Made by a program: the position numbers and the translations under genes
Assembly (NCBI GenBank): GCA_965655095.1
Contig: OZ296648.1
Coordinates: 51,832,001-51,896,000 of the forward strand
Length of the DNA: 64,000 bases
Origin: Haplodiscus bocki
Lineage: Eukaryota
Direction of reading: 5' to 3'
The notes under the pieces: model-generated
Database searches by the model: none
Told to the model about the DNA's origin: nothing
The model's input: only the letters and a program-made list of their open reading frames with translations
In this document: piece after piece, positions 18,070 to 60,541 of the stretch
Numbering within the stretch: the stretch's first letter is position 1
Layout of the letters: each line of letters opens with the position of its first letter

Positions 18070-21000
18070 CATTATAGACAAAAACATTGTTGGATAGAAT
18101 TGAGCCGATAGCTTTAGAGAACTTTGAATTTGAACATCGACAAGTTATGATAAAAATTGGAACTTTCCGCCTTCCTGGTCTTTCAAAATTCCAATACATA
18201 AAATGAAAATTATTGTTCAATAAAACTGTCAAAAAAAATAAAAATACTAAAATCCGTGGGTTCAGACCTTGTTAGAAAATTCAAAGCTGTAGTAAATCAG
18301 AAACATGTGGTAGAACATCAAGATATGTTCAAACAAAGAGCACTTCTTCCACTTTAGGCTAATCACGATTCCAAGTTCGATAACTGGAACAAATTTTGAA
18401 ATCTCTGGAAACAAAGAATTCCGTCTCAAGTGAAAAACAATCAATGGATACCTTGACCGAAGGAGGAAGCAAGTGGATCTGAAGCAATTCGACTTTGACT
18501 AACGAGGCATGCCGAGACTAATATCATTTTTTGGTAATTTCGTTGCATCAGAAGAACACCGCCTAAAAATCACTTCCAGTGCTTTTTCAAGGAATAGTCC
18601 CACGCAAGTAGAAGCCATTAGATCCCGACCTTGAAAAAAGAAATCAGTCAGTTTTTACAGTGAAACATCAGTTTGAAAATGGTCTTGACTCTGTATTACC
18701 GGCATTTCTGAATCATCGGATTTTCACTCCACAGCACAAAAATATGCTTTCGCAACAAACTTCCAGTGTAAATAAAACTCTTTAGAGTGGGACATTGTAG
18801 GACGAAATCAGGTCAGTGTTTTTGAAGGAACACTGTTTCAAAATTCAGATGAGTCCAATATAAAAAATTTTCTGGCACTTTCGGTCTGTCAAGGTATTAA
18901 AGCAGGAAAAGAAATGTTACTGAACTATGCTATTCGAAAAACCAAAAAATTGCGAATCAGACATTGGTGGAAGGAAACAGACTTGTAGTTATAGAGAAAC
19001 TTTAGTTTTAAAATAGAGCCTTTTGACTACTACGAGCATTTTGGCATCCTGAGACTATCAAAACTGCAACGCAAGGACTAGATTCAATCGTGTTTAAACC
19101 GAATAATCAACCAAAAACAAAAACCTTAAGATTCAGACACGGATGCCAGAATTCAATTCAGCTGCTCCAAAGAACTTTGAGTCAGAAAATTGGAAGAAAG
19201 TCAGAAATGAGAACAGTTTTCTGGCATATCGAACTGCAAGAATGCCAACGTAAAAACCGAAGTCAACCTTTTTTCACAACAACAGTTTTCTAGGATCAAG
19301 AAAACATAAATTGTGACTTCGATGGAGGAAATTTGGATTGTACTTACAACGAAATACGAAATTGAACGTCCAGGTTGGTTAAAGTTGAATATTTTTTGAG
19401 TATTTTCAGTCATTTCGGTTTCTGATGCAAGGAGCAGACTGGTTCTATTTTAAACTCAAAGCCTCTAGAAGTACAAAAAGGTCCAATTGAAGCCTTGATG
19501 AAAGAAATTAGGTCTGTTTAACCGGAGAAAAATTAGTTTGATTCTCGGGTTGATACGAAATCAATAGCATTTTCTGGAAGCTACGGACAGTCAGAATTCC
19601 GAACCAAAGATAAAACACATGTTTTTCCAAATAAATCCGCTAAATCAGGTGCTAAGGCTCGATTGAGACTCTGATCGATGGAATCAAACTTCTAGTTATG
19701 GAGAAACAAGAAGTCGAATATCCATAACAAGCTACATTGAGAGCACCTTTTGGAATATTTGCATTCTTTTGATTCGGAGGCCAAATTCAAAGTTACGACT
19801 TCTCAATTGAATCATCCTCCGGTACAACTTTACAGCTTTTTATCGAGATCTCAACAAAAGACATCAAAAATGTAGTTGTGGAGAAAGGTGGTTTAGAATA
19901 CCGATATAACTCAAATTTCAAAAGCTTCCGAGAATTTTCAGAGTCTTGGCACTCAGACGCAAAGACTTGAAAAGATAGTTCCACAATTCAGCACCGTTTT
20001 ACAAGCAGAAAATTTTCGGTGCAAAACCTGATGGAAAAAGTAATCTTGTAGTTACAGGGAAAAACACTTTGAATCTCGGGATGTTAAAAAATCAATAGCA
20101 CATTTAGGAACCTCCGGACAATCAAAAATCCAAACATAATGTCGGATCTGATTATTTTTCAAACAAACTATTCTCAACAAATGCGAATTTTTTGAAAGAG
20201 ACCTTGATGGAAACATTGAACCTGTAGAATATTGAGTTTATGAGATTGAGTATTGGAAGGAATCTTGATAGCACTTTTTGCAGTTTTCAGACTCTCATTG
20301 TTTTGACCCACCGACAAAAGTCTTTCGTGGTTCATTCCAATCTTCCTCCAGAAGTGTGAGGCTTTCAATTGACCCCTCGACTCAAGAAATCCAACGTGCA
20401 GTCCCTGATATATTTGATTTTGAAAATCGATGAAAATCAAAATAGTAGTTTCTTTTGAAAAGTTCGGACAATCAGGAATCTGACGCAAGGATTGAATTAC
20501 ATTTTTTTAAGTGACACCTTTCTCTAAAAGTCAAAAACCTTCTAATGAGAACTTGATGTACGAAAACAAGTCTACTTTTGCACCTGAAAATCGGTTCGAA
20601 AATCGAGATAAATTAAAACTAAAAGCAATCCGCAGAATGTTCAGACTGTCAGCGATCTGTTGCAAGGACTAACATGAATTGTTTTTGTTTTGAATCGGAA
20701 TCACGTCCGCAAGACTGAAATATTTGAAAATTTTTTGATAGAAAAAAACAGGCAACTTAATTCGCAATTATATGAGTGTGAATGTCGAAGTAAATCAACA
20801 TTAATAGTAAGTCTTGGTTTTTGGGACTATAAAGCATCTGATGCCAGGAAGAAGACTAAAGTAAGTTTTTATGAAATATTACCTTCCAAGAGCAAATTTT
20901 CCGACTGAGAATTTGCTGAAAAAAATCAGAACTGCAGTTACGGTGAACAACGAGCTCAAAAATCGAAGAATCAAAATTGATGACAGCTTTTGGATGTTCC

Positions 21001-21600
21001 GTATTATCAGGTTTTTGACGGAAGGTTTTTTAATAAAATTTTTCAGTCGAAAGGACTTGTGAAGGTTGAAAGCATTCAATTGGGTCCTAGATGGAAAAAT
21101 CTAGCCGGTGGTTACGGTAGAAGTTGATTCTGAATATCAAGCAAAATCAAAACTAAAAGCACTTCTTGGAAAATGCTGACTACCAGCATTTTCATGCGAG
21201 GAAGAGGATCCACAACGCTGCAATCACATAGTTTGTCACAGACTGAAAGTTTTTGATTGAGACTCGGTTGGAAGAAACCAAGCTTGTAGTTGCTCCATTA
21301 ATTGATCTCTAATATCGAGGTAAACCAATAAGGATAGCATTCTCAAGAATTTTCGGACTGTCAATACTCTCTCGTGAGGCATATAGCCACCGCCTTGTTA
21401 ATGGAATACTCTTGTAAAAGCAGATTGTTTTCGATTGAGAGCCAGTGGAAGGAATTGAAATCCATGTTTCTGGAAATAAGTGAGTTCCAACTTCAAGGAA
21501 AATCAAAACTAATTGCGCTTTTTGGCATGACCTGAATCTGGGGATCACAGAACGAGATGATCCAGCGTCAAAACTTCTGAAACATGTTTGTACTTTCTCA
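18070..21600. repeat. Highly diverged ~177-bp tandem array, about 20 units
   Basis: Motifs like GAGACCTTGATGGAA..CTTGTAGTTATGGAGAA..GGACTATCAGG recur at about 18085, 18263, 18445, 18625, 18790, 18960, 19135, 19315, 19490, 19666, 20025, 20197, 20548, 21260 and 21435. Confidence 0.75.
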
Positions 21601-21894
21601 GTCCGGAGAAACTAGAGAAAGAAGAAAATAGCTACCAAAAAGCTGAAAGGAAACTCCAGTTTTTACACTTATAGTTAAAATTTAACAGAATTACAGATTT
21701 TTTCGATTTCTTCAAGAAATCGGTTTTTTCCCATTTCTTACAAAATATTGAGAAACAAACGAACTAGTTAAAATACTTCACAATACTGAACAATTTTCAG
21801 AGAAAAGGTCACTTATCTAATAAAAACTTTTAATTTGTCGAAAGAAAACGATTTTCGAAAACTAAAAGAAAAGGTTTTGTCAAGGGGTATCTAG

Positions 21895-22624
21895 AAATAT
21901 CTGAAACACCTGAACCACCACGAGCTCCCCCATCAACCCAAACAACATTTGGACCTTCTTCGGATCTAGAAACCCGAGTCAGACAATTGGAAGAAGAAAA
22001 TACCAAGGCAGGGATAGTCGCGAAACAATTGCATCCTTTTACCGCTCTCAATTCGCCTTTCTCTATGATAGAATTCGATCCTTGGAGTCTGGAGGCACAG
22101 ACACTATCTTGTGGAAATTAACTTCATTGAAATTAGTCTTCGACACCGCCAATTCTTCTGCTCGACTGGACAACGCTGCCAAAGACCCCAGTACTCATTC
22201 TAATAGCCCAGTGTACCGCACGCACCCTTACGGCTATAACTTCTTTGTTCAGTTCTACCCATACGGTCTGGACTCTGCCGCTGGAAATCACTCTTCAATT
22301 ATCTTCGCTTTCTTTCCCGGCCAATACGATGGGTTATTGACATGGCCGTTCCCCAAAACGATTCAACTCTCAGTCCGCGATCAACTCGACCCCCAGAATA
22401 CGTGGACTATCACCTTCGCAGCCTCCGAGAAGATATCCTTTCGATGGCCTACCAGAGAACCATTACCTACTCTGATGACCTTCAACTTCTTCCCACACAG
22501 CAAGGTGTTCAGCAGAACTGAAGACTTTCTTTTATATGATACTTTATATTTGGAGATAAAATTCACTGACTTACCCAGCCCTGAAAGCGCCACTCCTTCA
22601 ACATCCCGACCATCCTTTTTATAG
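21895..22624 (+). pseudogene. Intronless TRAF-like segment: coiled-coil stub + TRAF-C/MATH domain, 5'-truncated with one frameshift
   Basis: ILWKLTSL, SPVYRTHPYGYNFFVQFYPYG, GNHSSIIF..PGQYDGLLTWPF, LSVRDQ, SFRWPT and FLLYDTLYLEI match the TRAF MATH pattern (LWKI, SPxFYT..GY, GTHLS, GEYDxLLxWPF, LLDQ, SFxRP, DDTLFI). The upstream coiled coil DLETRVRQLEE/..FLYDRIRSLE is joined by a 1-bp frameshift near 22010. No in-frame ATG upstream of the domain. Confidence 0.88.
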
Positions 22625-22799
22625 AACCCCCTAATCTTTTTTCTACCCTTTTAACCCCTGTGAGTTGTCGCGTTATAGCTAACGCTTAAACAGATATATT
22701 AGATTTCTTAAATACGCGCAGTAAGCTTTTAAACAGGAAATGACTAATGTTTAACAAGAGAACTGCAGTCGCTATTGACTAACCTGGGAGCTGGTGGAC

Positions 22800-25205
22800 G
22801 ATATAAAATAATATGCTATATGAAAGAAAGCTGAAGAATTGGAATTGCACAAGGAAAGGAAAAAAGCAAAAATTCTAAATTGCTGGCTCAACGCGATTGG
22901 CTCAACGACTGGTCACGAAGTATGATGACGTAGCTTCGTATTGTAGCTGGTACGGGAAAACGGCTTGATCATTACTTACTTACTCGCTTACCGTATGGCA
23001 GCCTTACTCTTTCCCCTTTACCTTACCTTACTCTCCTCTTTCCTTTTACTTTACTGCCTTTCCTTTTAACCTTACTTCCCTTCCATTCTTGCTGGGTTAA
23101 AATTATTCGAAATTCTCTTCTCTCTTCACTTCGGACAAAAATATTCGAAGTCCTTTTTCTTTCTGACTTAGAAAAAAATCCCCCTTGTGCCTACAAACTC
23201 CATACTCACTTTATTCATTCGCTTTCCTACCGTCAACTGGCCTAATTCCCCGAGGAGAAACTATCTTCCACTTTCCCCTCATCATGTTTCTAGCGCTGAA
23301 TTCTTGCTCTGAAAATATCTTAAAACAATTTCAAGACTTGTCTTTGCCAAATTTCTTCATCGCCTCTTCGAAAATATTCAAAGACTTTTTCGCCTGCAAA
23401 CTTATCTTAGCCGCAAATCGTCAACTATATCCCGGAAATATTCAAAGACCTTTCGAGCAGCAATCAACAGCAGCAACCAGCATCAGCAACCAGCAGCAGC
23501 AATCAACAGCAGCAACCAGCAGCAGTAATCAACAGCAGCAACCAGCAGCAGCAATCAACAGCAGCAACCAGCAGCAGCAATCAACAGCAGCAACCAGCAC
23601 CAGCAATCAACAGCAGCAATTAGCGGCAACAACCAGCTTTCATCCTACCAGCAGCACCTACACAATCCACGACGACTTCCGTTAGTTCCGACTACGGTTC
23701 CTAGCAGAGGCTTGTCCGGCTAGAAGTTGATATAGGATTAGTCGCCCGGTATCAGCGTGCAGCCACCGCACCGTGGCCCATTTTGTGACTTTTCCATTTT
23801 TCTAAAATCCTTTTTTTGTGAATTTTTCCCTTTTTTGCTAAGACCTAGTTTTAATTATTAATTGGTAAAAGTAAAATGTTTATTATTCACGACCTATCGG
23901 CAGTCCCTATGACGTATGCCTTGGTCGCAGATAAAAGAGATTGAAATTTATTGCTGGTGACCTTTGTGTCCGGACTGTTAATCGGCAGGTGACAAAATAC
24001 CAGCCTTAAGATTACACCCGACGAGTGGTTTTATACCACACGGTGGTGATTTTTCAAACTAAGAGTAGTGTAAAAAGCATGTAATTTGAAATGCATGTAA
24101 TACTCAACTCCCTTTCCCTAAATACTGGCCTATCCAGCTGGGACTAAAACAGGGACTAGGAGGTTAACCCATTAGCCTAGAAACCTAGAGCATTGCGTGG
24201 TTTAGCTAAACGTAAAACAAACGGTAAAACAAACTGGCTAAAAAAAAGCCGACTAGACAAGACGGAAAGTGTACATCACCCGCACTAGTCAAAAAGTATA
24301 ACGGTGTATGTCTTTGTTCTGTTTACAGATATTCCACATCCAACAACAGCAGCAGTAATCATGGATATGGATCGTCTTTGATCTTAAGATTTTAGAATTT
24401 ATGAATTCTTGGGACTAAATTTGCATATTCCAATTTTCTAATTTTGATGATTCAATTTAAATGGACTAAAGTGAAAGGGTCCAATTTCTATCTATGATTT
24501 TACAGATTCTTAACTTAATTCAATAAATTCAACTTTTATATTTAATTTTATATTTTCAATCCAGACTAAAATAAACTAGTCTGAATTGGTGTGATGTTAT
24601 TTATACCTTTACTTCTAAAGTGAAATTAATTTAATGTGATTCGATTTTTAACTTTTATAAATTCTAACAATTTGTGGCATCCCCTTACAACCCTGTCTTT
24701 AGTCTTCTGACTTCTTGTTGAATAAAGTGCTGCCCTTCCACTAAATCCACGGTTAAATTTAAATTGGAGTTGACTAATTGAAAATTAAAATTCTTCATAT
24801 ATTGTTGAAACTAATGTTGAAATTGAAATAAAAGAAGAGAAGAATTGACTGAATTGTATAACATTAAAGACCATATGGCAATTTTCCCTGTGCTATCCCA
24901 CGCTTACAGTCTCAGGCAAAGCTGAGTAATTTCCCCTTACGTACGTGCAGACATTTTCCTTTCAGCAATTCAACATATTGAAATACGTTCACTAATAATT
25001 TAACTTTCCCTTGTATCATTCTCCACTATATCTCACAAGTCCTTGCTTGAATTCACGCAATCCCTTTACTCGCACGGTAAAGCAAGGCACACTATTGAGA
25101 CTTACAAATAATAACCGTCGCTACAACGCAGCAGTGCTGACTGAGTCAACCGCCAGCACGACTAAGTAAATATTTGATTTGCAACACCCCTACTACGTGC
25201 GAACA
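22800..25205 (+). mobile_element. Putative long (~2.4 kb) LTR following the TRAF ORF
   Basis: Non-coding block preceded by the G-rich tract GGGAGCTGGTGGACGA (possible PPT), containing simple-sequence tracts and AATAAA motifs, and ending ...CTACTACGTGCGAACA before an abrupt return to background sequence. No second copy in the window, so this is inference. Confidence 0.35.
23456..23660 (+). repeat. Low-complexity CAGCAGCAA(TCAA/C) minisatellite
   Basis: Mixed 10- and 13-bp units (CAGCAGCAAC, CAGCAGCAATCAA) in tandem. Confidence 0.85.
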
Positions 25206-39038: not shown

Positions 39039-42000
39039 CTCTGGCTGTGGAAGGCAATAGCAAACCACCACAGTATCCTGCTAAGAAACCATGAAGTTCA
39101 ATATAGTAAATCAAGAAAACGACGTTAACGTAGCCCAAAGGGGAGACGCGTCCGGTATGGATTGCACTACCAGGCAGGGTGCACCAGATCGTCATCATGC
39201 TACTGCCAAGATGGAAAAGCAAAAGAAAAAGAAGAATGTGTTCAAAATCGCAACATGGAACGTGAGAACACTGTTACAGCATGGAAAGTTGGAAAACGTG
39301 AAAAAAGAAATGGATCGTTTGAAATTCGATATCTTCGGAATATCAGAAATGCGTTGGAAAGGAAGTGGACGTATTCAAACCGACGACCACACTGTCATTT
39401 TCTCCGGCTCAGAAAACAGAAGCGAGATGGGAGTTGGATTGATATTTAACAAAAAGTGGTCAAAGAAGTTGACCGGATTTTGGCCGATTTCTGAACGAGT
39501 CCTTCTGGCCAAATTATCGACCGCGCCAATGCCAATGATTATTGTCCAAGTGTATGCTCCGTCAGCAACATCAACAGATAGTGAGATCGAGGCATTTTAC
39601 GATGATGTCGAAACAGCCATTAACAAATGCAAATCCAGAGATATCACAATGGTCATTGGTGACTGGAATGCGAAAGTAGGCAATGAAGAATCCTGTAGTG
39701 CCGTGGGACCTTTCGGACTGGATGAAAGAAATGAAAGAGGTGACAGATTTATTGAATGGTGCGAGGATCACAAGATGGTCATCAGCAACACATGGTTCCA
39801 AAATCGAAAAAGTAGATTGTATACATGGCGAAGCCCTGGTGATCGTACAAGAAACCAAATTGATTATATATGTGTGAATGAAAGATGGAGAAATTCCATC
39901 CTGGACTGCAAAACGTACCCTGGGGCGGACATCGGAAGTGATCACAATCCAGTTGTTGCAAAGGTGAGAGTGATTTTGAAAAAGACAAAAGCAACTGAAT
40001 TGAGACGCAGGAGGGATTATCAGTCTATTGATCCGGCTACCAGTCATGAAATAGAACACTTTGGAAGACAGATATGGACACACGAAGATAGAGAAACGAA
40101 AGAAACCACATGGGAGAAATTCAAACGTGTTTGTCATCTAGTAGATGAAAAATTTGTGCCTGTACGTAAACAACACAAAAACGGGTGGATCACTGAAGAG
40201 ATCCTAGAATTGATGGAAAAACGAAGGAAAGTTAAATTTGACGACAGAAGATACAAAGAAACAGACTGCATCATCAAACGAAAATGTATGGAGGAAAAAA
40301 TGAAGTATTATGACGCGCAATGTAACGAAATTGAATTGACTGAAAAATATATGCCAAGAGATCACCATCAAAGAATACAACAAGTAACCGGTAAGAAATG
40401 GAAAAATCGAAAGGATTCGAACGTGTTAAAGGACAAAGAAGGAAACATCATGATTGAAAAAGATCAAATTATTGAACGATGGAGAGAATACATTGAAGAA
40501 CTGTATAGTGACGATGAACGACTGCAAGAAACGATAAAGTTCGAGGGCGAATTGACTGGTAATAAAATTGAAAAAGATGAAATAGTGAAAGCAATGAATA
40601 CAATGAAAACGGACAAAGCGATTGGAAATGATGAAATACCTGTCGAAACGATCAGAAATCTGGGCAACACTGGTTTAGATATGCTACAGAAAATGTTTAG
40701 CGAGGTATATGAAAGTGGAAAATGGGATATTGAGATGATGGAATCAACGTTTATACCGTTACCAAAGAAACCAAAAGCAATTGACTGTAGTAACTTCAGG
40801 GCTATTAGCATAATGAATCACTCGACGAAAATATTATTGCGAATCATTATAAATAGAATGAAAAATGCCATTCATGCAGAAGTCAATGAATGCCAGAACG
40901 GCTTCATGCCGGATAAAGGAACTCGAAACGCCGTGTATGTACTCAACCGGATCGCAGAAAGAAGTAAACAAGTACAGAAAAAGGTGTTCTGCTGCTTTAT
41001 TGATTACACAAAGGCGTTCGACCGAGTCCAACACAACATATTATTTGAGATTTTGAGTGATCTAGACGTTAACGACAAAGATATCCGACTAATGCACAAC
41101 CTTTATTTCGGACAAAAAGCGAATATCCGAGTCTGTAATACGAAGTCAGAAAATGTGGATATAAAGAAGGGAGTGAGACAAGGATGCGTTGCATCGCCAG
41201 ATCTGTTCTCTTTATATTCGGAGGTGATAAGGAGAGCAATAGACAGAGAAAATGGAGTCAACATCGGAGGCCATAATATAACCAATATCCGATTCGCAGA
41301 CGATACAGTTTTAACAGCAAATACAGCAGACGATCTACAGATTCTACTGGAAAAAACCAACGCGAAATGTAGAAAGTTTGGAATGGAGATAAATACGAAA
41401 AAACGGTCATCATGGTACTAAACGGAGATGGAAAAGTGAAAACAGAGATCAAACTAAATGGTGAAGTTCTTAAAGAAGTGGAAAAATTCAAATACCTGGG
41501 AAGCTGGATAACGACTAATGGAGGACACATGACTGATATTAAATGTCGAATTGCCGAAACGAAAATAGCTTTTGCGGACATGAAAAATATACTAGCTAAT
41601 CTTAAAATGCCGTTTGACTTGAGATACCGAATTTTGAATTGTTATGTCATGCCTATACTTCTGTACGGATGTGAAAATTGGATATTGAACCAACAACAAA
41701 TTAAAAGACTAGAAGCGACCGAAATGTGGTTTATACGGCGAATGCAAAAGATCAGCTGGAAAGAAAAGAAGACAAACGAACAGGTACTCAGAGAAACTAT
41801 CGGAAAACGAAAATTAATACAAAAAATTGTGCAGCGACAAGTGTCATTTTTTGGACACGTTATGAGAAAACGACAACTGGAAAACATCGTAACAACAGCA
41901 AAAATAAATGGAAAACGGAAGAGAGGAAAACCATCGATCCAGTATATGGATCAAATTAAAAAATGGACCCAGCAAGATTCCATCGAGAGCCTGATGTCGA

Positions 42001-42064
42001 AAACTTACGAACGGACTTTATTGGTTGCCCAAGTCCATTGACAAGGCACGCAAAGAAGAAGAAG
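38965..42064 (+). mobile_element. Full-length RTE-clade non-LTR retrotransposon
   Basis: Perfect 12-bp TSD AAGAAAAAGTTG at 38953-38964 and 42065-42076; short 5' UTR, single APE-RT ORF, very short 3' UTR and (AAG)n tail. Confidence 0.95.
39091..42041 (+). CDS. RTE APE endonuclease-reverse transcriptase polyprotein, split by one frameshift near 41400
   Basis: APE motifs TWNVRTL, GISEMRW, QVYAP, GDWNAKVG, QIDYI, GSDH; RT motifs FIDYTKAFD, GVRQGC, RFADD, FKYLGS; RTE-type C-terminus FFGHVMR..GKRKRG. One extra A in the A6 run restores INTKKTVIMVLNG and joins the 776-aa and 209-aa ORFs. Confidence 0.95.
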
Positions 42065-42324
42065 AAGAAAAAGTTGCTATATTGATGCAGAAAAATTAAC
42101 AAAAATGGGTGGCGGAAAACATCCTGGCGGTAGCCGAGCGTGTTGTCCTTTTCATTCTACCAGAATGATAATATGAACAGTTTTTCCGGTAATATCTTCG
42201 GTTCCAACCCAAAATACCCAAGCCCGAAAAACCCAAACCCAAAATACCCAAAGTTCAAAATACCCAAGGCCAAAATATCCAAAGTCCAAAACACCCATGG
42301 CCAAAAAACCAACTGTCCCAAAAT

Positions 42325-44391
42325 GGTTACAGGACTTTTGCTACTAGTCCATTTGCTAATATGATATTTGATACTACGTAAATTGCTATAAGGTACTTTG
42401 CTAGTATATACTATTTGCTACTCTTCAATTTTTGTTACTAAAGTTCAAACGCTACTACGCACTCAAAAACTCTTGAAGGTCATACATGATCACACGTAAT
42501 TTGATTGACACCGTACGGTATGCGCCTCAAAAGCAGAATAGTAAACAACATTAAAAATCAGTAAACACTTTTTAATTTTATTCAATTTTCTACACGCAAA
42601 CAGAATGACTTACTTAACTTGATTGAGTTGTTCTATACTGCGGATAAACAGTATGTGCTTCATAAGCCGAAAAGTAAACAACATTAAAAACACCAGTAAA
42701 CAACTTTTCAACGTTTTTCGTACGCGTGGATAAAATTACTCATCTTTCAATCAAAAAATATATACGTTGCAATGTTGCTACAACGATATTTAGGTGTCTT
42801 TACATTGGCGTTCGTTGCCAAACGGGTACTGCTTGTGCCTGTAAAAATTGGAAAAACTAAATTGAACCTTCCTTCTGCCAGGTTTCCTAAAACAATCCGC
42901 ATTATTCACCACCCGGTTTACACAAATTCCAGCTTCCTGGAGTTTGGGAAAGCCTGGGTTGGGACGGGGAGCGGTAAATAAAACTGCTAAAAATGCTCTG
43001 ATCCAGGCACTAAAATTTGAGCTCTCAATTCGCAATAGTTTTTGAGAGTTTGTTCCTGAAATTTTTGGAAAACAGACAAAATTTAATTATGATTAACGTA
43101 TAATAACTTGAATGACAAATTGTGTCAATGCCACACAAGCTAAATCATTCACTGGAGATGAGCGATGCTCCATAAGAAAGGCATGAGTTTTTCTTTCTTT
43201 TCATCATAGGAGTTTATGAAGGTATGACCTCGGTCAATCAGCTGCTGATCTGTTTTGCGTAAATTCTTTTGGTGACCAGTCCCAGCCTGTAGGACATTGA
43301 ATTTATGATTTTCGATGATTAGAGCATTGTGGCGGAACATCTGGAGGAAAGTCCACACTTTCGGATGATTGGTGTTAAAAAGCGGTTGGATTCTATAATG
43401 CCAGGATTCAACTGCATTATTTGTGCTCGATAGCTTTCAAAAAAACTGCTCTGTTTTAACTCCAGATTGACGGTTCAAATGTTGGGGCTCTTCTAGTACT
43501 TTTAATGTGGGCTTTTTGGAAGTAGCATGCAAATTTCTTGACTTTTTCTGAAATTTCATCGTCTGATTCGAATTTCAAAGGATGTCACCTTCTTCTTCTA
43601 TTACTAAAAAGAAACCTTCTTCAAGGTGCTTCACTGGTAAAAAAAAGCAGTTGCAGGTACCATTTTCAAGGCTAGGGCCAATTCTGGGGTCGTTGTGGAA
43701 TTTTTTTTCGAACCGACTCCATTTTTTTGCGCAGAACGGATTGTCAAAGAAGAGCGTAACATCCATAGTCTTTTTCAGCTAGAAACGTTGTGGAAAACGC
43801 ATCAACAGCCGCCTTTTTGAAGTCCATCATTATTCTTGCAGGATTTGTTTTCAGTATTGACTGCACGTGGTGGACTGTTGTTAGTGTTTTTTCTTTTAGT
43901 TGGTTTTTGGCTTGTCTCTTTTCCGTTTCCCTTGGCTTAATGTTGCAGATATGATCTTTCGGTTTTTTTACAATTTCATTTCTTGATGTTATCACTAACC
44001 TTGAACATTTAATTTGACGATAATAGCGGCAAATCCAATGTGTTGTTGTGTTTTTCTTTTTTTTTAAACGTATTAATAACTTGGTATATGAGAGTTGGGC
44101 ATCCTCGGTTGGAAGTTCCAAAATATTCATTTTGATGAGTTAGTTGACAATTGAGCAAAGTTCAACCTATGTCTTACATATATATAACGAATAGATGATT
44201 ACTTAATTAAGGGATAAGTAAATTGCGTTAATCATCCTATGAAGCGGAAGTGCGTCAAATGTAAATGTCTTAGAACATTACCTGATAAATACGTAGTGGC
44301 AACGTATTAATAGTAGCAAAGTGTCTAGTTGCATTTTTTCTATTAGCAGGAAGCCTAGTAGCAAGTTAACTTGTAGAACTTTCTTGGCACC
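42325..44391 (-). mobile_element. Mutator (MULE) element nested in the left TIR of the outer element
   Basis: TIRs with TTGCTACTAG subrepeats; flanks TCCCAAAAT (42316-24) and TACCAAAAT (44392-400), 8/9. Contains a transposase relic. Confidence 0.8.
43150..44130 (-). pseudogene. FLYWCH-MULE transposase, internally deleted and frameshifted
   Basis: HWICRYYRQIKC...KDHIC (FLYWCH-like), PARIMMDFKKAAVDAF...GCY (MULE DDE second block), STNNAVESWH...HPKVWTFL (RTNNxxExWH..HPxxWxFI). Confidence 0.85.
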
Positions 44392-44699
44392 TACCAAAAT
44401 ACCCAAGATTGAAACAGCAATACCAAATAATTAATTAAGAGCGTATTGTCAATACAAGTGCCCAAAATATTTGAATGTTGAATATACTTAATTGAATACT
44501 TAATTGATATCTTAGTTATGATGGTGAAATTAATGCTTCTTGCAATAAACTTCTATACCCCCTTATAAACACACTTCACTAAATTATTATCACATCTAGG
44601 ATCAACTTTGCAAAAAATTCACCCTTTTGACAACTAAAATTTTCCGGAATACCGAGATGTTTGTTGGGGGGGTCATAATTTCAACTCTCAGTGTCGAAG

Positions 44700-45912
44700 A
44701 TTTTGTGACGTGAGTTACCATTTTTTTCTCCCAGTGTCGATGTCAAAAAATTGGTGAAATGAACCACAATTTTGTCTCACAGAGTCGAAAACTTTATGAG
44801 GTGAGTAATCATTTTGTCTCCAAGTGTAAAAAAGATTTGTGAGACGAATTACAGTTTTGTCTCACAGTGTCGAATATTTTGAGAAGTGAATTACATTTTT
44901 GTCTCACAGTGTAGAAAAATTGGTGAGACGAATTAAAATTTTGTCTCACAGTGTCGAATATTTTGAGAGGTGAATTAAAATTTTGTCTCACAGTGTCGAA
45001 AACTTTATGAGGTGAGTTACCATTTTGTCTCCAAGTGTAAAAAAAGTTTGTGAGACGAATTACAGTTTTGTCTCACAGTGTCGAATATTTTGAGAAGTGA
45101 ATTACATTTTTGTCTCACAGTGTAGAAAAATTGGTGAGACGAATTAAAATTTTGTCTCACAGTGTCGAATATTTTGAGAGGTGAATTAAAATTTTGTCTC
45201 ACAGTGTCGAAAACTTTATGAGGTGAGTTACCATTTTGTCTCCAAGTGTAAAAAAAATTTGTGAGACGAATTACAGTTTTGTCTCACAGTGTCGAATATT
45301 TTGAGAAGTGAATTACATTTTTGTCTCACAGTGTAGAAAAATTGGTGAGACGAATTAAAATTTTGTCTCACAGTGTCGAATATTTTGAGAGGTGAATTAA
45401 AATTTTGTCTCACAGTGTCGAAAACTTTATGAGGTGAGTTACCATTTTGTCTCCAAGTGTAAAAAAAATTTGTGAGACGAATTACAGTTTTGTCTCACAG
45501 TGTCGAATATTTTGAGAAGTGAATTACATTTTTGTCTCACAGTGTAGAAAAATTGGTGAGACGAATTAAAATTTTGTCTCACAGTGTCGAATATTTTGAG
45601 AGGTGAATTAAAATTTTGTCTCACAGTGTCGAAAACTTTATGAGGTGAGTTACCATTTTGTCTCCAAGTGTAAAAAAAATTTGTGAGACGAATTACAGTT
45701 TTGTCTCACAGTGTCGAATATTTTGAGAAGTGAATTACATTTTTGTCTCACAGTGTAGAAAAATTGGTGAGACGAATTAAAATTTTGTCTCACAGTGTCG
45801 AATATTTTGAGAGGTGAATTAAAATTTTGTCTCACAGTGTCAAAAATTTTGAGAGATGAATTACAATTTTGTCTCATAGTTCGAAAAATTTGTGAGGTGA
45901 ATTACAATTTTT
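44700..45912. repeat. 42-bp minisatellite organised as a 211-bp five-monomer higher-order repeat (about 5 copies)
   Basis: Monomer core TTTTGTCTCACAGTGTCGAA. The variant AACTTTATGAGGTGAG recurs every 211 bp, consistent with ORF-track ends at 45017, 45228, 45439 and 45650. Degenerate monomers at both edges. Confidence 0.95.
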
Positions 45913-46435
45913 AGGATAACATATTGTGCGAAAATTTTTGGACAAAAAATATAGAATTATGGAATTGCAAGTTTCCGTTTAGTTTTAAAGAAAAATAGTT
46001 TTGAATTTTTCAACAATGTTTTTCGGTTCAAGGTAATTTTCTGTAAATATTTTGACTTGTGGTATTTTTTTCTGACACCACTAATATTTTGAAGCATCAT
46101 TAAACCTAAGTATTTAGTAGCGTCTTGAAACTTTTAGTTTAAGACGCTCTTATTTATTAGTTTAGTATGGCTAATTCAATCTTGGCTTTTTTGAGACTTT
46201 GGGTATTTTGGCCTTGGGTATTTTGTAACTTTGGGTATTTTAGGTCTGGTTATTTTGTCCTGCCACCATTATTTTCAGCTAATGAGTCATGAAAACATTT
46301 ATGATTGTTTTTCGGAAGTTGAATCCAAAAAGTTACAAATTTTTCACAAGACACCAAGAATTTTGAAAACCTACGCTTTACCTTTCATTGCATTCAAATT
46401 TCAAAAATGAAATCATTTCATGTTCTCAATTTTAG

Positions 46436-56800: not shown

Positions 56801-57950
56801 ATTCTCATATTGCAAACTCGCATGACGGTCCATCAGAAAACAAGCGGTTACTGAAGTGAAAAGTATTAATTATTAACACCGAGAGGTCAGGTCTCATTTT
56901 CAAAGAGATACTTCGTCCTCATATTTTGGCTTGCCATTGAAGTGTATCATGAAGGCAACTTTTCAATTTGCTAAATCAAATTCCTTCATCTTTCATCTAT
57001 CACACACGCTGAGTAGGGTCGATAGATTTTGCTGAGATAAAAGACACGTCACAAGTGTCGAATTGAGCACCAGCCAATGTTTATCACTAACAGCCATTCT
57101 GGCGCCATTCTGTAAGTCTCAAAATGTTCATTCATATGGGCTCGCAGACAATATGCATGGCATAAAAGCAGATTGTAGAAGTTTAATTTTCATAAAAGCT
57201 TGAACTTCTTGTTTTACGAGCATGTTGAAAAGTTGTTCAAACCTTTGATCAGGGGTGGATATGAAACAAAACAAAAAGTGCCTAATAGGTACTGTTTTAA
57301 GTGCTAATAACAGCCATTTCAGGTGGTTAAAATTCAGAATCGTTAAAATAGGTGCTATTATATGTCGAATCTTACTTGAAAACTTTTTCGAAAAGCAAAA
57401 AATTTAGCTCGCTGAACGGTATTAATGCTCTAAAATGTTGACATAAAAAATTGAAAGTTTTCGAAATTCTTGGCTATAATTAAACTCCGCCCCTGATTGT
57501 GACTGACAGAAAAACTATGAATCTTTTAAATACCTTCGCTCTGATTCATTTGCTGACGACTGTTTTATAGTTCCCTCCAATCACAGTACAAGGAACATCG
57601 TGGAATCTTTTCTTTTGACTTTAGTAATTTTTGTGATTTTTGGAAACTACTTAAATTCAAATAATTTCTCACCGATATTGGACTATTTTAGTTGGTTTTT
57701 CAAAAAAATCATTATAGTGACAGCATGACACCGTTTTAATCAATAGAAGTGTCATTTTATTAGATCCACTATGATATGAGTACCATGGAGAAACTGAATA
57801 GTTTTTTTCCAGATAGAAAACTACATTTTGGTCATACTATTGTTGAGTCGTCAAACTTTTTTCTCTGCATAGATCGTAAATTTGCATGAATTTAATTTTC
57901 GGTTTGTGTACATTTCACCTCACAGACATTTAACCCCACTTTTGAAAACA

Positions 57951-58290
57951 GTAGCAGGAACAAAAATACTCAAACTCAAAATACCTAAGCTCAAAATACC
58001 CGAAATCCCAAAATACCCAGGATCGAAATAACTATACTAAATAAAGAACTAACAGCATCTTAGCGCTAAGAGTTTCAAGACGCAACTAATTACGTACGTT
58101 TAAGGACACTTCAAAATATTGATGGTGTCAGATTAAAATACCACAAGTCAAAATATTTACAGAGAATTACCTTGAATAGAAGAACATTGAAAAATTTCAA
58201 AATTAGTTTTGGTTGAAAAATAAACGGAAACTTGCATTTCTAAAATTCTGTATTTCTTGTCTGAAAATTTTCAAGCAAAATAATTTTCTG
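57951..58290. repeat. Inverted partial copy of the right end of the 42200-46267 element
   Basis: For example CTTCAAAATATT..TGGTGTCAGA..ATACCACAAGTCAAAATATTTACAGA..TTACCTTGAA (58110-58176) is the reverse complement of about 46027-46094. Confidence 0.8.
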
Positions 58291-58708
58291 AAACTGTAGT
58301 TTTTGCGAATTTGGAATTGATAACTTCCATTCTAACTTAGTTTTTTTTGTTAGTGGGCGCCCAAAATTTTCAAAGTTTGAGGTTTCCAAAAAACTAATTT
58401 ATTTGACTTGTTGAAAATACTGAAGCGTAACCCAAAAAAATTTCGGCACTGTGAAACAAAATTGTGATACCTCCATTTTTTTGCAACAGACCGGTGAAAC
58501 GCGCAAATTTGAGACTTAAAAGCCTTCTATGCCTTTCACATTTGTCTGCTTTTTTGATTGTGCTGTAAAAATTCGAGTTAAAAATTTCCAAAAACTTCAA
58601 ATTCCAAAATGGTAAATTTTTACAAAATAGATGCTAGCTGTGGTAGTAGTCTTTTTTGTTCGGTGCATTTATGATGTTATATAGAATTTTGTTTTAACAA
58701 GCAGTAAT

Positions 58709-60541
58709 TAGTTCCAAATTAACATTATCAGATGTTTTCAAAGGTTCCACTCCAAAGTACCCAAAACCAAAATGCCCAACCCCAAAACACCCAAGGCCAA
58801 AGTAACCAATGTCCCAAAACACCCAAAGCCAAGGTACCCAAGAGTTGAACAACCATACCATTTGAAGGGGGGCAGGAGAAAACCGCCGTTTTTGAGGTGG
58901 GACAAAACCGCCAATTTTGAAATTGAGACAAAGCCGCCGACTCTGAAAACGAGACAAACTCGCCGATTTTGTGAATGAGACAAAGCAGCCGTTTATTAGA
59001 ACGAGACATAATCGCCGATTGGTAATAACAAAGATCGATGATTTTGTCATTGCAGAACAAAGTTCAAAAATAAGAAACATTTGACTCAATTGCACAACGT
59101 ATTGAAAGCGAGTGAGCTGAATCTTGAAAGAATTCATTGCGCGCACATTACGTGATACATGATTACACTGCGCGCTGTATGGTACGTGATAAGACGGTTA
59201 CACGTCATTTTGTCCTACACCATTTCAACCGTTGCAGTTTTACCCGTTCACACTTTCAACCGCTTGCCTTTCCGACCGCTTGCACATTCAACTGCCGAAA
59301 ATTTGACCTATTTAATCAGGTTCAAGGTTATTCAATTTTTTCAAGACGTTCTAAATTAATTCAAAAAATTGAAGAATCAATAGAGCGTCATTAACAAGAC
59401 AGTCTGACGTAAATTCCAAAGGTCCTATTGGACAAAATACCATACGCAGCAAACTTGAAAATGATGTCTCCGAACTTAACCAGGAAGAAATCAGATGCAA
59501 TTTGCATCTCACTAGGAGAACAAACTTGAAGGGACTTTAATTTCTTGTCACCGGCTTTGACAAAGTTGTTGAAAATTCTGTTCAACACTTCCAAATTGTT
59601 ATTAGTTTTACTTTTTCTGTCCATTACCGCTTGATAAACGCTCCATTCACTAGCTGCAAATCTTGGTACGCGTCTGCCTTGAATAATCTGAAATAGCTTT
59701 CTTGTTCAGGAGTAGTGCGTAAATCAGAGGAGTTATGTAAATGTTTGTGCGCGAGACTTACCGTGGGTTTTGTGTACTTGATAAAAAACATCGTGTGATG
59801 TAGAAAAAGTGCCGTCCCAGTACCATCTCTCAGATTCCCCAGAACACCCAAGTTTGTTGGTCTGGCGAAAATGAGTAGTCTTTCTGGATCATGCGATCCA
59901 CTGTCATAATTCTGCCGCCTCTTCGGTAGATGTAACCCTCATGAATGGCAAGTTCAGCACTCTTCTGTCTATTGCTGAAATTCATTTTTGCGAAGTGCAA
60001 TCAGCTAACAAAATGAAGTGTAGTGACTTAAGTTTTTGCGATGAGTGATTTGAGTAATCTATCAATTAACACTTAAGGGTGTCAAAGTCTGATCGGAATT
60101 CGCGGTATCAGTTTTCACTGCCTATATCTCATTGATAATTACATGAACTTCATCAGCGCCTATTTACCAATCAGAAGCTATTAAATTGATGAAGTTTGTC
60201 TTCATGCATTTCCGTCTTGCAATTTTGTTAGTTGGAATTTAAATATGAGCAAAAGAAAAATCGGCGAATTCCTGACACAAAAATCGGCTGCTTTGTCCCA
60301 CTTCAAAATCGGCGATTTTGTGTGGCTTTCAAAATCGGCTGTTTTGTCTCGTTTTCAAAATCGGCGGTTTTGTCCTACTCCCATTTAAAGAGTTTGGTTG
60401 TTTAAATCCTGTGTACATTGGCTTTGGATATTTTGGGACATTGGTTACTTTGGCTTTGGGTGTTTTGGGCTTGGGAATTTTGGTTTTAGGTGTTTTGGAG
60501 TGGAACCTTTGAAAACATCTGGTAATGTTAATTTGGAACTA
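58709..60541. mobile_element. Palindromic fold-back MITE split at its centre
   Basis: 58709-58858 is an inverted copy of 60391-60541, including GGTTCCACTCCAAA.. (58743/60507) and 15-bp CCCAAAACACC subrepeats. Confidence 0.85.
58868..60382 (-). mobile_element. Mutator-like element with 25-bp subrepeat TIRs and transposase remnant
   Basis: TIR arrays of GACAAAACCGCCGATTTTG; flanking direct repeat ATTTGAAG/ATTTAAAG; internal minus-strand remnants EGYIYRR and KTNNNLEVLNRIFN (MULE RTNNxxE motif). Confidence 0.7.

Follow-up and report, generated by a model that had tools for sequence, protein, structure and literature searches.

The 64,000-nucleotide stretch of the Haplodiscus bocki genome analyzed here (hereafter the window) contains, at positions 21899-25205, the broken 3' end of a Ty3/Gypsy element of ~18 kb, comprising a frameshifted TRAF open reading frame (ORF) and the 3' long terminal repeat (LTR) (Table 1). 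The element family has been recently active. It is practically certain that this family carries a captured TRAF as cargo, which was the central claim of the original prediction: there are many intronless copies, they sit between an upstream Gypsy pol and a common downstream LTR, and their dN/dS is far below 1.

Table 1 Features of the element remnant in the window
Feature	Positions	Strand	Evidence
5'-truncated beginning of the remnant, with the linker end and the first half of the pre-MATH coiled coil; frame other than that of the MATH part	21899..22005	+	Sister-copy homology from 21899-21910; frame PEPPRAPP...LETRVRQLEEE
Remaining coiled coil, complete MATH/TRAF-C domain (~22112-22561) and stop, after the frameshift near 22005	22006..22624	+	ORF 21914-22624, Pfam, PDB TRAF matches, alignment
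Short pyrimidine-rich spacer ending GTGAGT, without polypurine tract	22625..22665	+	Same pattern at 26 of 30 loci; 745 exact junction matches genome-wide (other families and a gag-only derivative included), control 0
3' LTR, ~2.5 kb, TGTCGC...GTGCGAACA (ending in sister copies: GTGCGACA)	22666..25205	+	Same sequence 5' of the primer-binding site (PBS) and gag in sister copies
13/26-bp tandem array within the LTR, of variable length among copies	23456..23620	+	TRF; BLAST against sister loci

The intronless coiled coil and complete MATH domain that had been read from the sequence were recovered by Pfam (PF21355, E 7.8e-17; PF22486, E 7.8e-12) and by the best PDB matches of the ORF, i.e., TRAF4, TRAF5, TRAF1 and TRAF2. 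The 5' truncation and the frameshift held up as well: window positions 1-21900 and the 10 kb preceding the window yielded no gag, pol or env DNA, and a three-frame reading separates the start of the coiled coil from the MATH frame. The LTR-like block proposed downstream is a true LTR ending in CA, although it begins 41 bases past the stop codon and not at ~22800, and the purine-rich stretch taken for a polypurine tract falls inside it. Pyrimidines predominate just ahead of the LTR at each of the 26 readable loci among the 30 examined (the other 4 lack the anchor motif that marks the LTR start), and none of these 26 has a polypurine tract, a usual but not defining feature of Ty3/Gypsy elements. 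Since the window MATH DNA is ≤90% identical to any sampled copy, we regard the window copy as an older remnant. On its upstream side, the truncation point abuts a degenerate repeat whose period is close to 178 bp (window 19000-21890). The spacer before the LTR ends in a conserved GGTGAGT.

A host TRAF terminal exon or processed pseudogene lying beside an LTR by chance would fit a window copy without adjoining gag, pol and env, and a donor gene that has its coiled coil and most of its MATH domain in one large exon, but it is hard to reconcile with an identity of 80-88% to 149 element copies as against ~35% to host genes. Moreover, the window copy spans the position of the host intron, shares its spacer-LTR junction with 25 other loci, and nests within the element family that we designate A (support 100/98). 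Element copies, LTR, junction and tree together rule out such a host origin for practical purposes, and the probability that we leave to it is vanishingly small. The LTR block also flanks gag-pol as a direct repeat, as seen from its occurrence 5' of the PBS and gag in sister copies.

We then consider the family across the genome. A MATH search of the 1.5-Gb genome returned 4018 first-look candidates (not a copy number), and all 150 scored candidates were intronless, with 80-100% identity, consistent with the multiplicity foreseen in the original prediction. The expected genomic context was also found: among ten fetched copies, picked for long ORFs, an env-like ORF lay upstream in 10/10 and pol in 9/10. 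Pfam domains in the element include gag, protease, macrodomain, reverse transcriptase (RT), RNase H, integrase and the Monjiviricetes fusion protein PF24664 (E 5.9e-33). The pol order protease-RT-RNase H-integrase, pieced together from Pfam matches in two separate pol stretches of sister copies, is that of Ty3/Gypsy (Metaviridae), and gag PF03732 and integrase SH3_Tf2-1 are consistent with this placement. Tandem copies recur with a period of 18.1-18.7 kb.

The LTR found in sister copies has the ends TGTCGC...GCGACA, and 4-bp target duplications surround 7 of the 8 LTR pairs that enclose an internal region and can be read at both ends. After the 5' LTR, the PBS shows an 18-base match to a host tRNA-Met(CAT), with nine genomic matches and one of five loci called by ARAGORN. 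Across the last 700 bases, nine LTR pairs differed at 0, 0, 0, 3, 4, 13, 29, 31 and 32 positions, two of these pairs (one at 0, one at 4) stemming from tandem or duplicated arrangements; such small differences (0-32 per ~700 bases) indicate that the family moved recently. Exact junction patterns occurred 745 (3') and 1938 (5') times genome-wide, counts that take in other families and a gag-only derivative, while controls gave 0. This derivative (loci L150-L156 and L158-L161, on C1) is high-copy and non-autonomous, with an internal region of 2.7-3.0 kb. It has the LTR start and primer site of family A and one ~414-aa gag frame, 69% like family A gag at the DNA level, without pol, env or TRAF. 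We rejected the possibility that these short elements are retro-copied spliced TRAF RNAs: 11 of 12 contain nothing but gag sequence, and the remaining one is a family-A copy with an internal deletion. Separately, at L064:5318-7043 a family-A-like 5' LTR and primer site lie upstream of a canonical host TRAF zinc-finger exon (C8), likely in an intron.

The order of the main genes is gag, pol, env (chuvirus/gB-type), ORF X and TRAF. In full, family A consists of three small leader ORFs, gag, pol, an acidic antisense ORF, a small ORF, env, ORF X (227 aa), TRAF (433-441 aa) and LTR. The TRAF had been assigned to the env slot; instead, a real env of the PF24664 class (about 720-750 aa) follows pol, and TRAF comes second among the ORFs after it. 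Three further families emerged from a search with a distant relative: B (456-aa frame), C (about 500) and D (256-260), with pol 50-76% and env 52-58% identical to family A, and a fifth family is suggested. All four have ORF X and TRAF behind env, which was present in 12/12 upstream stretches. ORF X had no Pfam match and no usable Atlas match, and an env search in PDB gave no match. At the ORF X-TRAF junction, stop and start overlap as ATGA in 44 of 46 readable family-A junctions (56 loci), TGATG in 3/3 copies of B and TAATG in 3/3 of C, while D has a 2-base gap. A pyrimidine tract and AG follow the env stop in 4/4 families (one copy per family).

A,(B,C) with a separate D is the topology of both the TRAF and the env tree; D is likewise separate in the integrase tree, which leaves the order of A-C unsettled. 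The TRAFs of families A-C form one clade (100/100) separate from host TRAFs, as had been anticipated. Family D TRAF, which lacks the first coiled coil (diverged in family C), groups with two relatives in a wider tree, and a single TRAF origin including D is neither shown nor rejected (p-AU 0.36).

Several smaller features accompany these genes. A macrodomain lies between protease and RT in pol (L050:2-2884, - strand; PF01661, 23.2 bits against a cut-off of 22). The acidic antisense ORF (~185 aa) is conserved between pol and env in families A-C (L047:3041-3604, L136:2966-3688 and L140:3274-3996, all - strand); no family was found for it, and its Atlas scores were all <0.9. In the L050 leader (~3000 bases from the low end upward, - strand), three tandem related ORFs of 113-130 aa lie between the primer site and gag, and an ORF before env at L047:4495-4980 resembles them. 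At L148, family D forms a 2.8-kb tandem array of the env 3' half, ORF X and TRAF, with at least 5 units.

Sequence comparison identifies the donor as a RING-less host TRAF family that has a single zinc finger. The best host matches are two C5 genes, at ~35% in MATH, and a FPLxNxKxxQYLHA motif in the first coiled coil is common to these genes and to families A and B. In the trees, the element TRAFs join those of the donor family to the exclusion of canonical TRAFs (100/99 with 31 rows; SH-aLRT 97 with 37 rows). Scanning 8-18 kb for ORFs did not find the upstream exons of the two C5 genes, and their N-terminus was therefore inferred from full-length relatives, i.e., P0139 (Convolutriloba macropyga), P0243 and P0314, which have one N-terminal zinc finger and no RING. 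From P0139, the one named relative, the host is likely an acoel. Given that both the donor family and the full-length element ORFs are RING-less, the missing RING is inherited, and not a product of truncation as had been considered. Near the end of MATH, a GT-AG intron interrupts both C5 genes at His|Ser; the element reads through this point as PHSK. Capture via a spliced host mRNA is the simplest reading of this absent intron, with a later intron gain in the host as an alternative that these sequences also allow. Four other TRAFs (P0130, P0234, P0272 and P0300) likewise continue uninterrupted across the host intron position and do not closely match any of the studied families; they are possibly element cargo in other species. 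Cluster look-ups returned no protein named as element-type. The genome also holds a canonical zinc-finger TRAF with introns and a TNFR-type cysteine-rich exon.

The family A TRAF is under purifying selection, with a dN/dS of 0.18 (0.16-0.23) over the whole ORF at dS 0.42, below 1 as had been predicted, and 0.13 in MATH. Other parts of the protein gave 0.13 (first coil), 0.05 (shared coiled-coil motif) and 0.33 (linker), and neighboring ORFs gave 0.24 (ORF X, 15 copies), 0.06 (env, 8) and 0.12 (3' pol, 7). These are pairwise NG86 estimates, those for TRAF from 31 distinct open ORFs out of 56 loci; the pairs are non-independent and the sample is biased toward open, best-scoring copies, yet the values remain far below 1. 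Such constraint largely refutes a neutral passenger, or an ORF kept for an RNA or cis role and not as a protein, as dN/dS is 0.13-0.18 at dS >0.4. TRAF is also retained across families with ~50% identical pol, and the MATH fold is conserved. We thus hold the passenger reading to be very improbable, even though the spread of the gag-only derivative with the common LTR (11/12 short elements) implies that TRAF is dispensable in cis.

AlphaFold modeling of the element TRAF yielded helices at 59-148 and 217-261 and MATH at 267-422, with disordered linkers and a mean pLDDT of 64, and the top Foldseek match was TRAF1 (E 9.6e-13). The protein is predicted to form a homotrimer: a coil + MATH trimer model scored 0.78, compared to 0.04 for the best of three controls, with ≥96% of contacts shared between runs and pLDDT ≥83. 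In a eukaryotic calibration the mark was reached by 17/29 solved pairs and 0/30 single chains, the present job differing from it in having three copies, and the score likely stems from likeness to solved TRAFs and may reflect trimers that the model had already learned. Residues at the predicted trimer interface show no greater conservation than the remaining MATH (dN/dS 0.24 vs 0.12).

The positions of the peptide groove, taken from TRAF2 and mapped via an automatic alignment with gaps, are near-constant among host genes, while families A-C differ from the host and from one another. Family A is identical to the host donor at 2/12 and to a canonical TRAF at 4/12 of these positions. Between families, identity is 1/12 for both A/B and A/C, vs ~55% in the remaining MATH (Fisher p ~0.002, post hoc), and within family A the groove is constrained (dN/dS 0.16). 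Because the groove differs from that of the donor and between families, the protein is probably not binding the donor's partners, which makes a plain competitive decoy doubtful; constraint within family A in turn speaks against a dead poison subunit. Judging from these sequence patterns, the MATH domain probably still binds some partner, and this partner is probably family-specific.

Considering these results, we propose, at roughly even probability, that the intact TRAF may act in the manner of a viral accessory adaptor, damping host death or stress signaling, by analogy with RING-less TRAF1 (PMC6305416). Specifically, the host TRAF that became the intronless last gene of this env-bearing Ty3/Gypsy element would have been captured through spliced mRNA. 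It would be expressed from a spliced subgenomic RNA, the AG directly downstream of the env stop serving as acceptor, and its translation would restart at the overlapping stop of ORF X (coupled restart). The protein would then form trimers and, having no ligase domain, may occupy host TRAF complexes or receptor tails, with the result that the element-expressing stem or germ cell would survive. A TLR/NF-kB target, as named in the original prediction, is unlikely because acoels are reported to lack the Toll pathway, i.e., TLR, MyD88 and NF-kB (PMC12849515). Our own genome search for an NF-kB Rel domain gave no match, but the controls were equally unmatched, hence it is uninformative. Two read sets of unknown kind gave contig cover only, with no GT-AG joint, and carry no weight either way on expression.

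A groove that is constrained in family A and different between families could also be tracking an element-encoded partner. TRAF would then serve the element's own particle, as a trimeric adaptor for the trimeric Env tail, Gag or an accessory protein in assembly or trafficking; the TRAF gene lies close behind env in all four families, and the agreement of TRAF and env trees would fit such a role. However, the C-terminal tails of Env are alike across families (EH[LI]YP...SP[VI]) where the groove is not, a clear PxQxT or [PSAT]x[QE]E motif is not evident in them by eye, and constraint is strongest in the coiled-coil motif common to the host protein (0.05). On balance, we consider this particle role improbable.

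The sign of the regulation may also be the reverse of damping. TRAF1 acts positively as well as negatively, and a TRAF1:TRAF2 1:2 heterotrimer recruits cIAP better than TRAF2 alone (PMC6305416). The element TRAF could accordingly be a positive regulator that nucleates or stabilizes pro-survival or proliferative signaling, e.g., by IAP recruitment, which would fit the first coiled coil being the best-conserved part in family A. Yet that coil is absent from family D and diverged in family C, and we give this possibility little weight, preferring a damping adaptor.

TRAF cargo in a Gypsy element, namely Burro, and gB-type env in Gypsy elements are already known. The planarian Burro/GYPSM1 Gypsy elements carry MATH_TRAF_C, as an accessory ORF in Dugesia tigrina, alongside BIR and BCL2 domains, and have been proposed to meddle with apoptosis and ubiquitination (PMC6431247). 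They resemble the present element in being Gypsy-type LTR elements with thousands of copies, a mononegavirus-fusion-related env and MATH_TRAF_C. Unlike it, Burro exceeds 30 kb and has a giant ORF1 in which env lies in frame, flanked by gag and pol, as well as BIR, BCL2 and ankyrin cargo (PMC6431247), whereas the present ~18-kb element has separate gag, pol and env ORFs in the order gag-pol-env-X-TRAF, with TRAF last. No Pfam match to BIR, BCL2 or ankyrin was obtained among the seven ORFs scanned here. A capture independent of Burro appears likely from the tree, in which the element TRAF nests in a RING-less family known from acoel-type sequences, Burro sequences being outside the trees.

In gag-pol-env order, tRNA PBS, chuvirus/gB-like env beside pol and many near-identical copies, the present elements resemble the Ty3/Gypsy elements with gB-type env described as "ancient errantiviruses" (PMC13524379). 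They differ from these in several added accessory ORFs and in the macrodomain in pol. TRAF, acoel, macro and accessory were absent from the main text of that survey, as were acoel names and TRAF from the seven supplements (PMC13524379). Our literature search found no account of TRAF cargo in acoel elements; Repbase and most subscription journals were outside this search, and prior annotation is possible.

HTLV and lentiviruses are complex retroviruses with accessory genes. The extra ORFs 3' of env, the likely spliced second exon and the antisense ORF give the present element a likeness to such viruses, from which it differs in its Ty3/Gypsy pol and in an accessory gene that is a recognizable host TRAF. 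Foamy-like fish endogenous retroviruses have also been mentioned as complex retroviruses with accessory genes (PMC6431247). On the protein side, the RING-less coiled coil + TRAF-C architecture is that of vertebrate TRAF1 (PMC6305416; PDB 5e1t, 5h10), and the one-finger layout of the host donor is the same as in TRAF1. The element TRAF departs from TRAF1 in lacking even the single zinc finger and in its remodeled groove.

The present case amounts to a likely independent TRAF capture whose donor, missing intron and selection can be traced in one genome, within a complex-retrovirus-like element. Captured genes kept under selection by a mobile element point to host defenses that have to be beaten, and with the donor gene, missing intron, selection and diverged families all in one genome, the capture is traceable and its target findable. 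As acoels reportedly lack Toll and NF-kB, a TRAF partner would expose the role of TRAF signaling in such animals. More tentatively, and with the balance of probability against it, enveloped retroelements may have captured TRAFs independently in two unrelated stem-cell-rich worm lineages because TRAF signaling would be an ancient anti-retroelement defense that operates without TLR/NF-kB. The acoel element TRAFs would then be arms-race accessory proteins with a groove re-specialized family by family, and the invertebrate element housing them would match a lentivirus in complexity (leader ORFs, macrodomain, antisense ORF, env, ORF X and TRAF). A TRAF expansion has been reported in planarians (PMC6109357). 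For acoel genomes, element copies may overwhelm any count of TRAF or MATH genes.

Finally, other repeats occur elsewhere in the window. A LINE with endonuclease and RT occupies 39085-42041, with a frameshift near 41400, and MULE-like pieces with long inverted repeats lie at 42200-46260 and 57950-60540. The first of these contains a weak FLYWCH match at 43744-44139 and a 42/211-bp satellite at 44685-45911.
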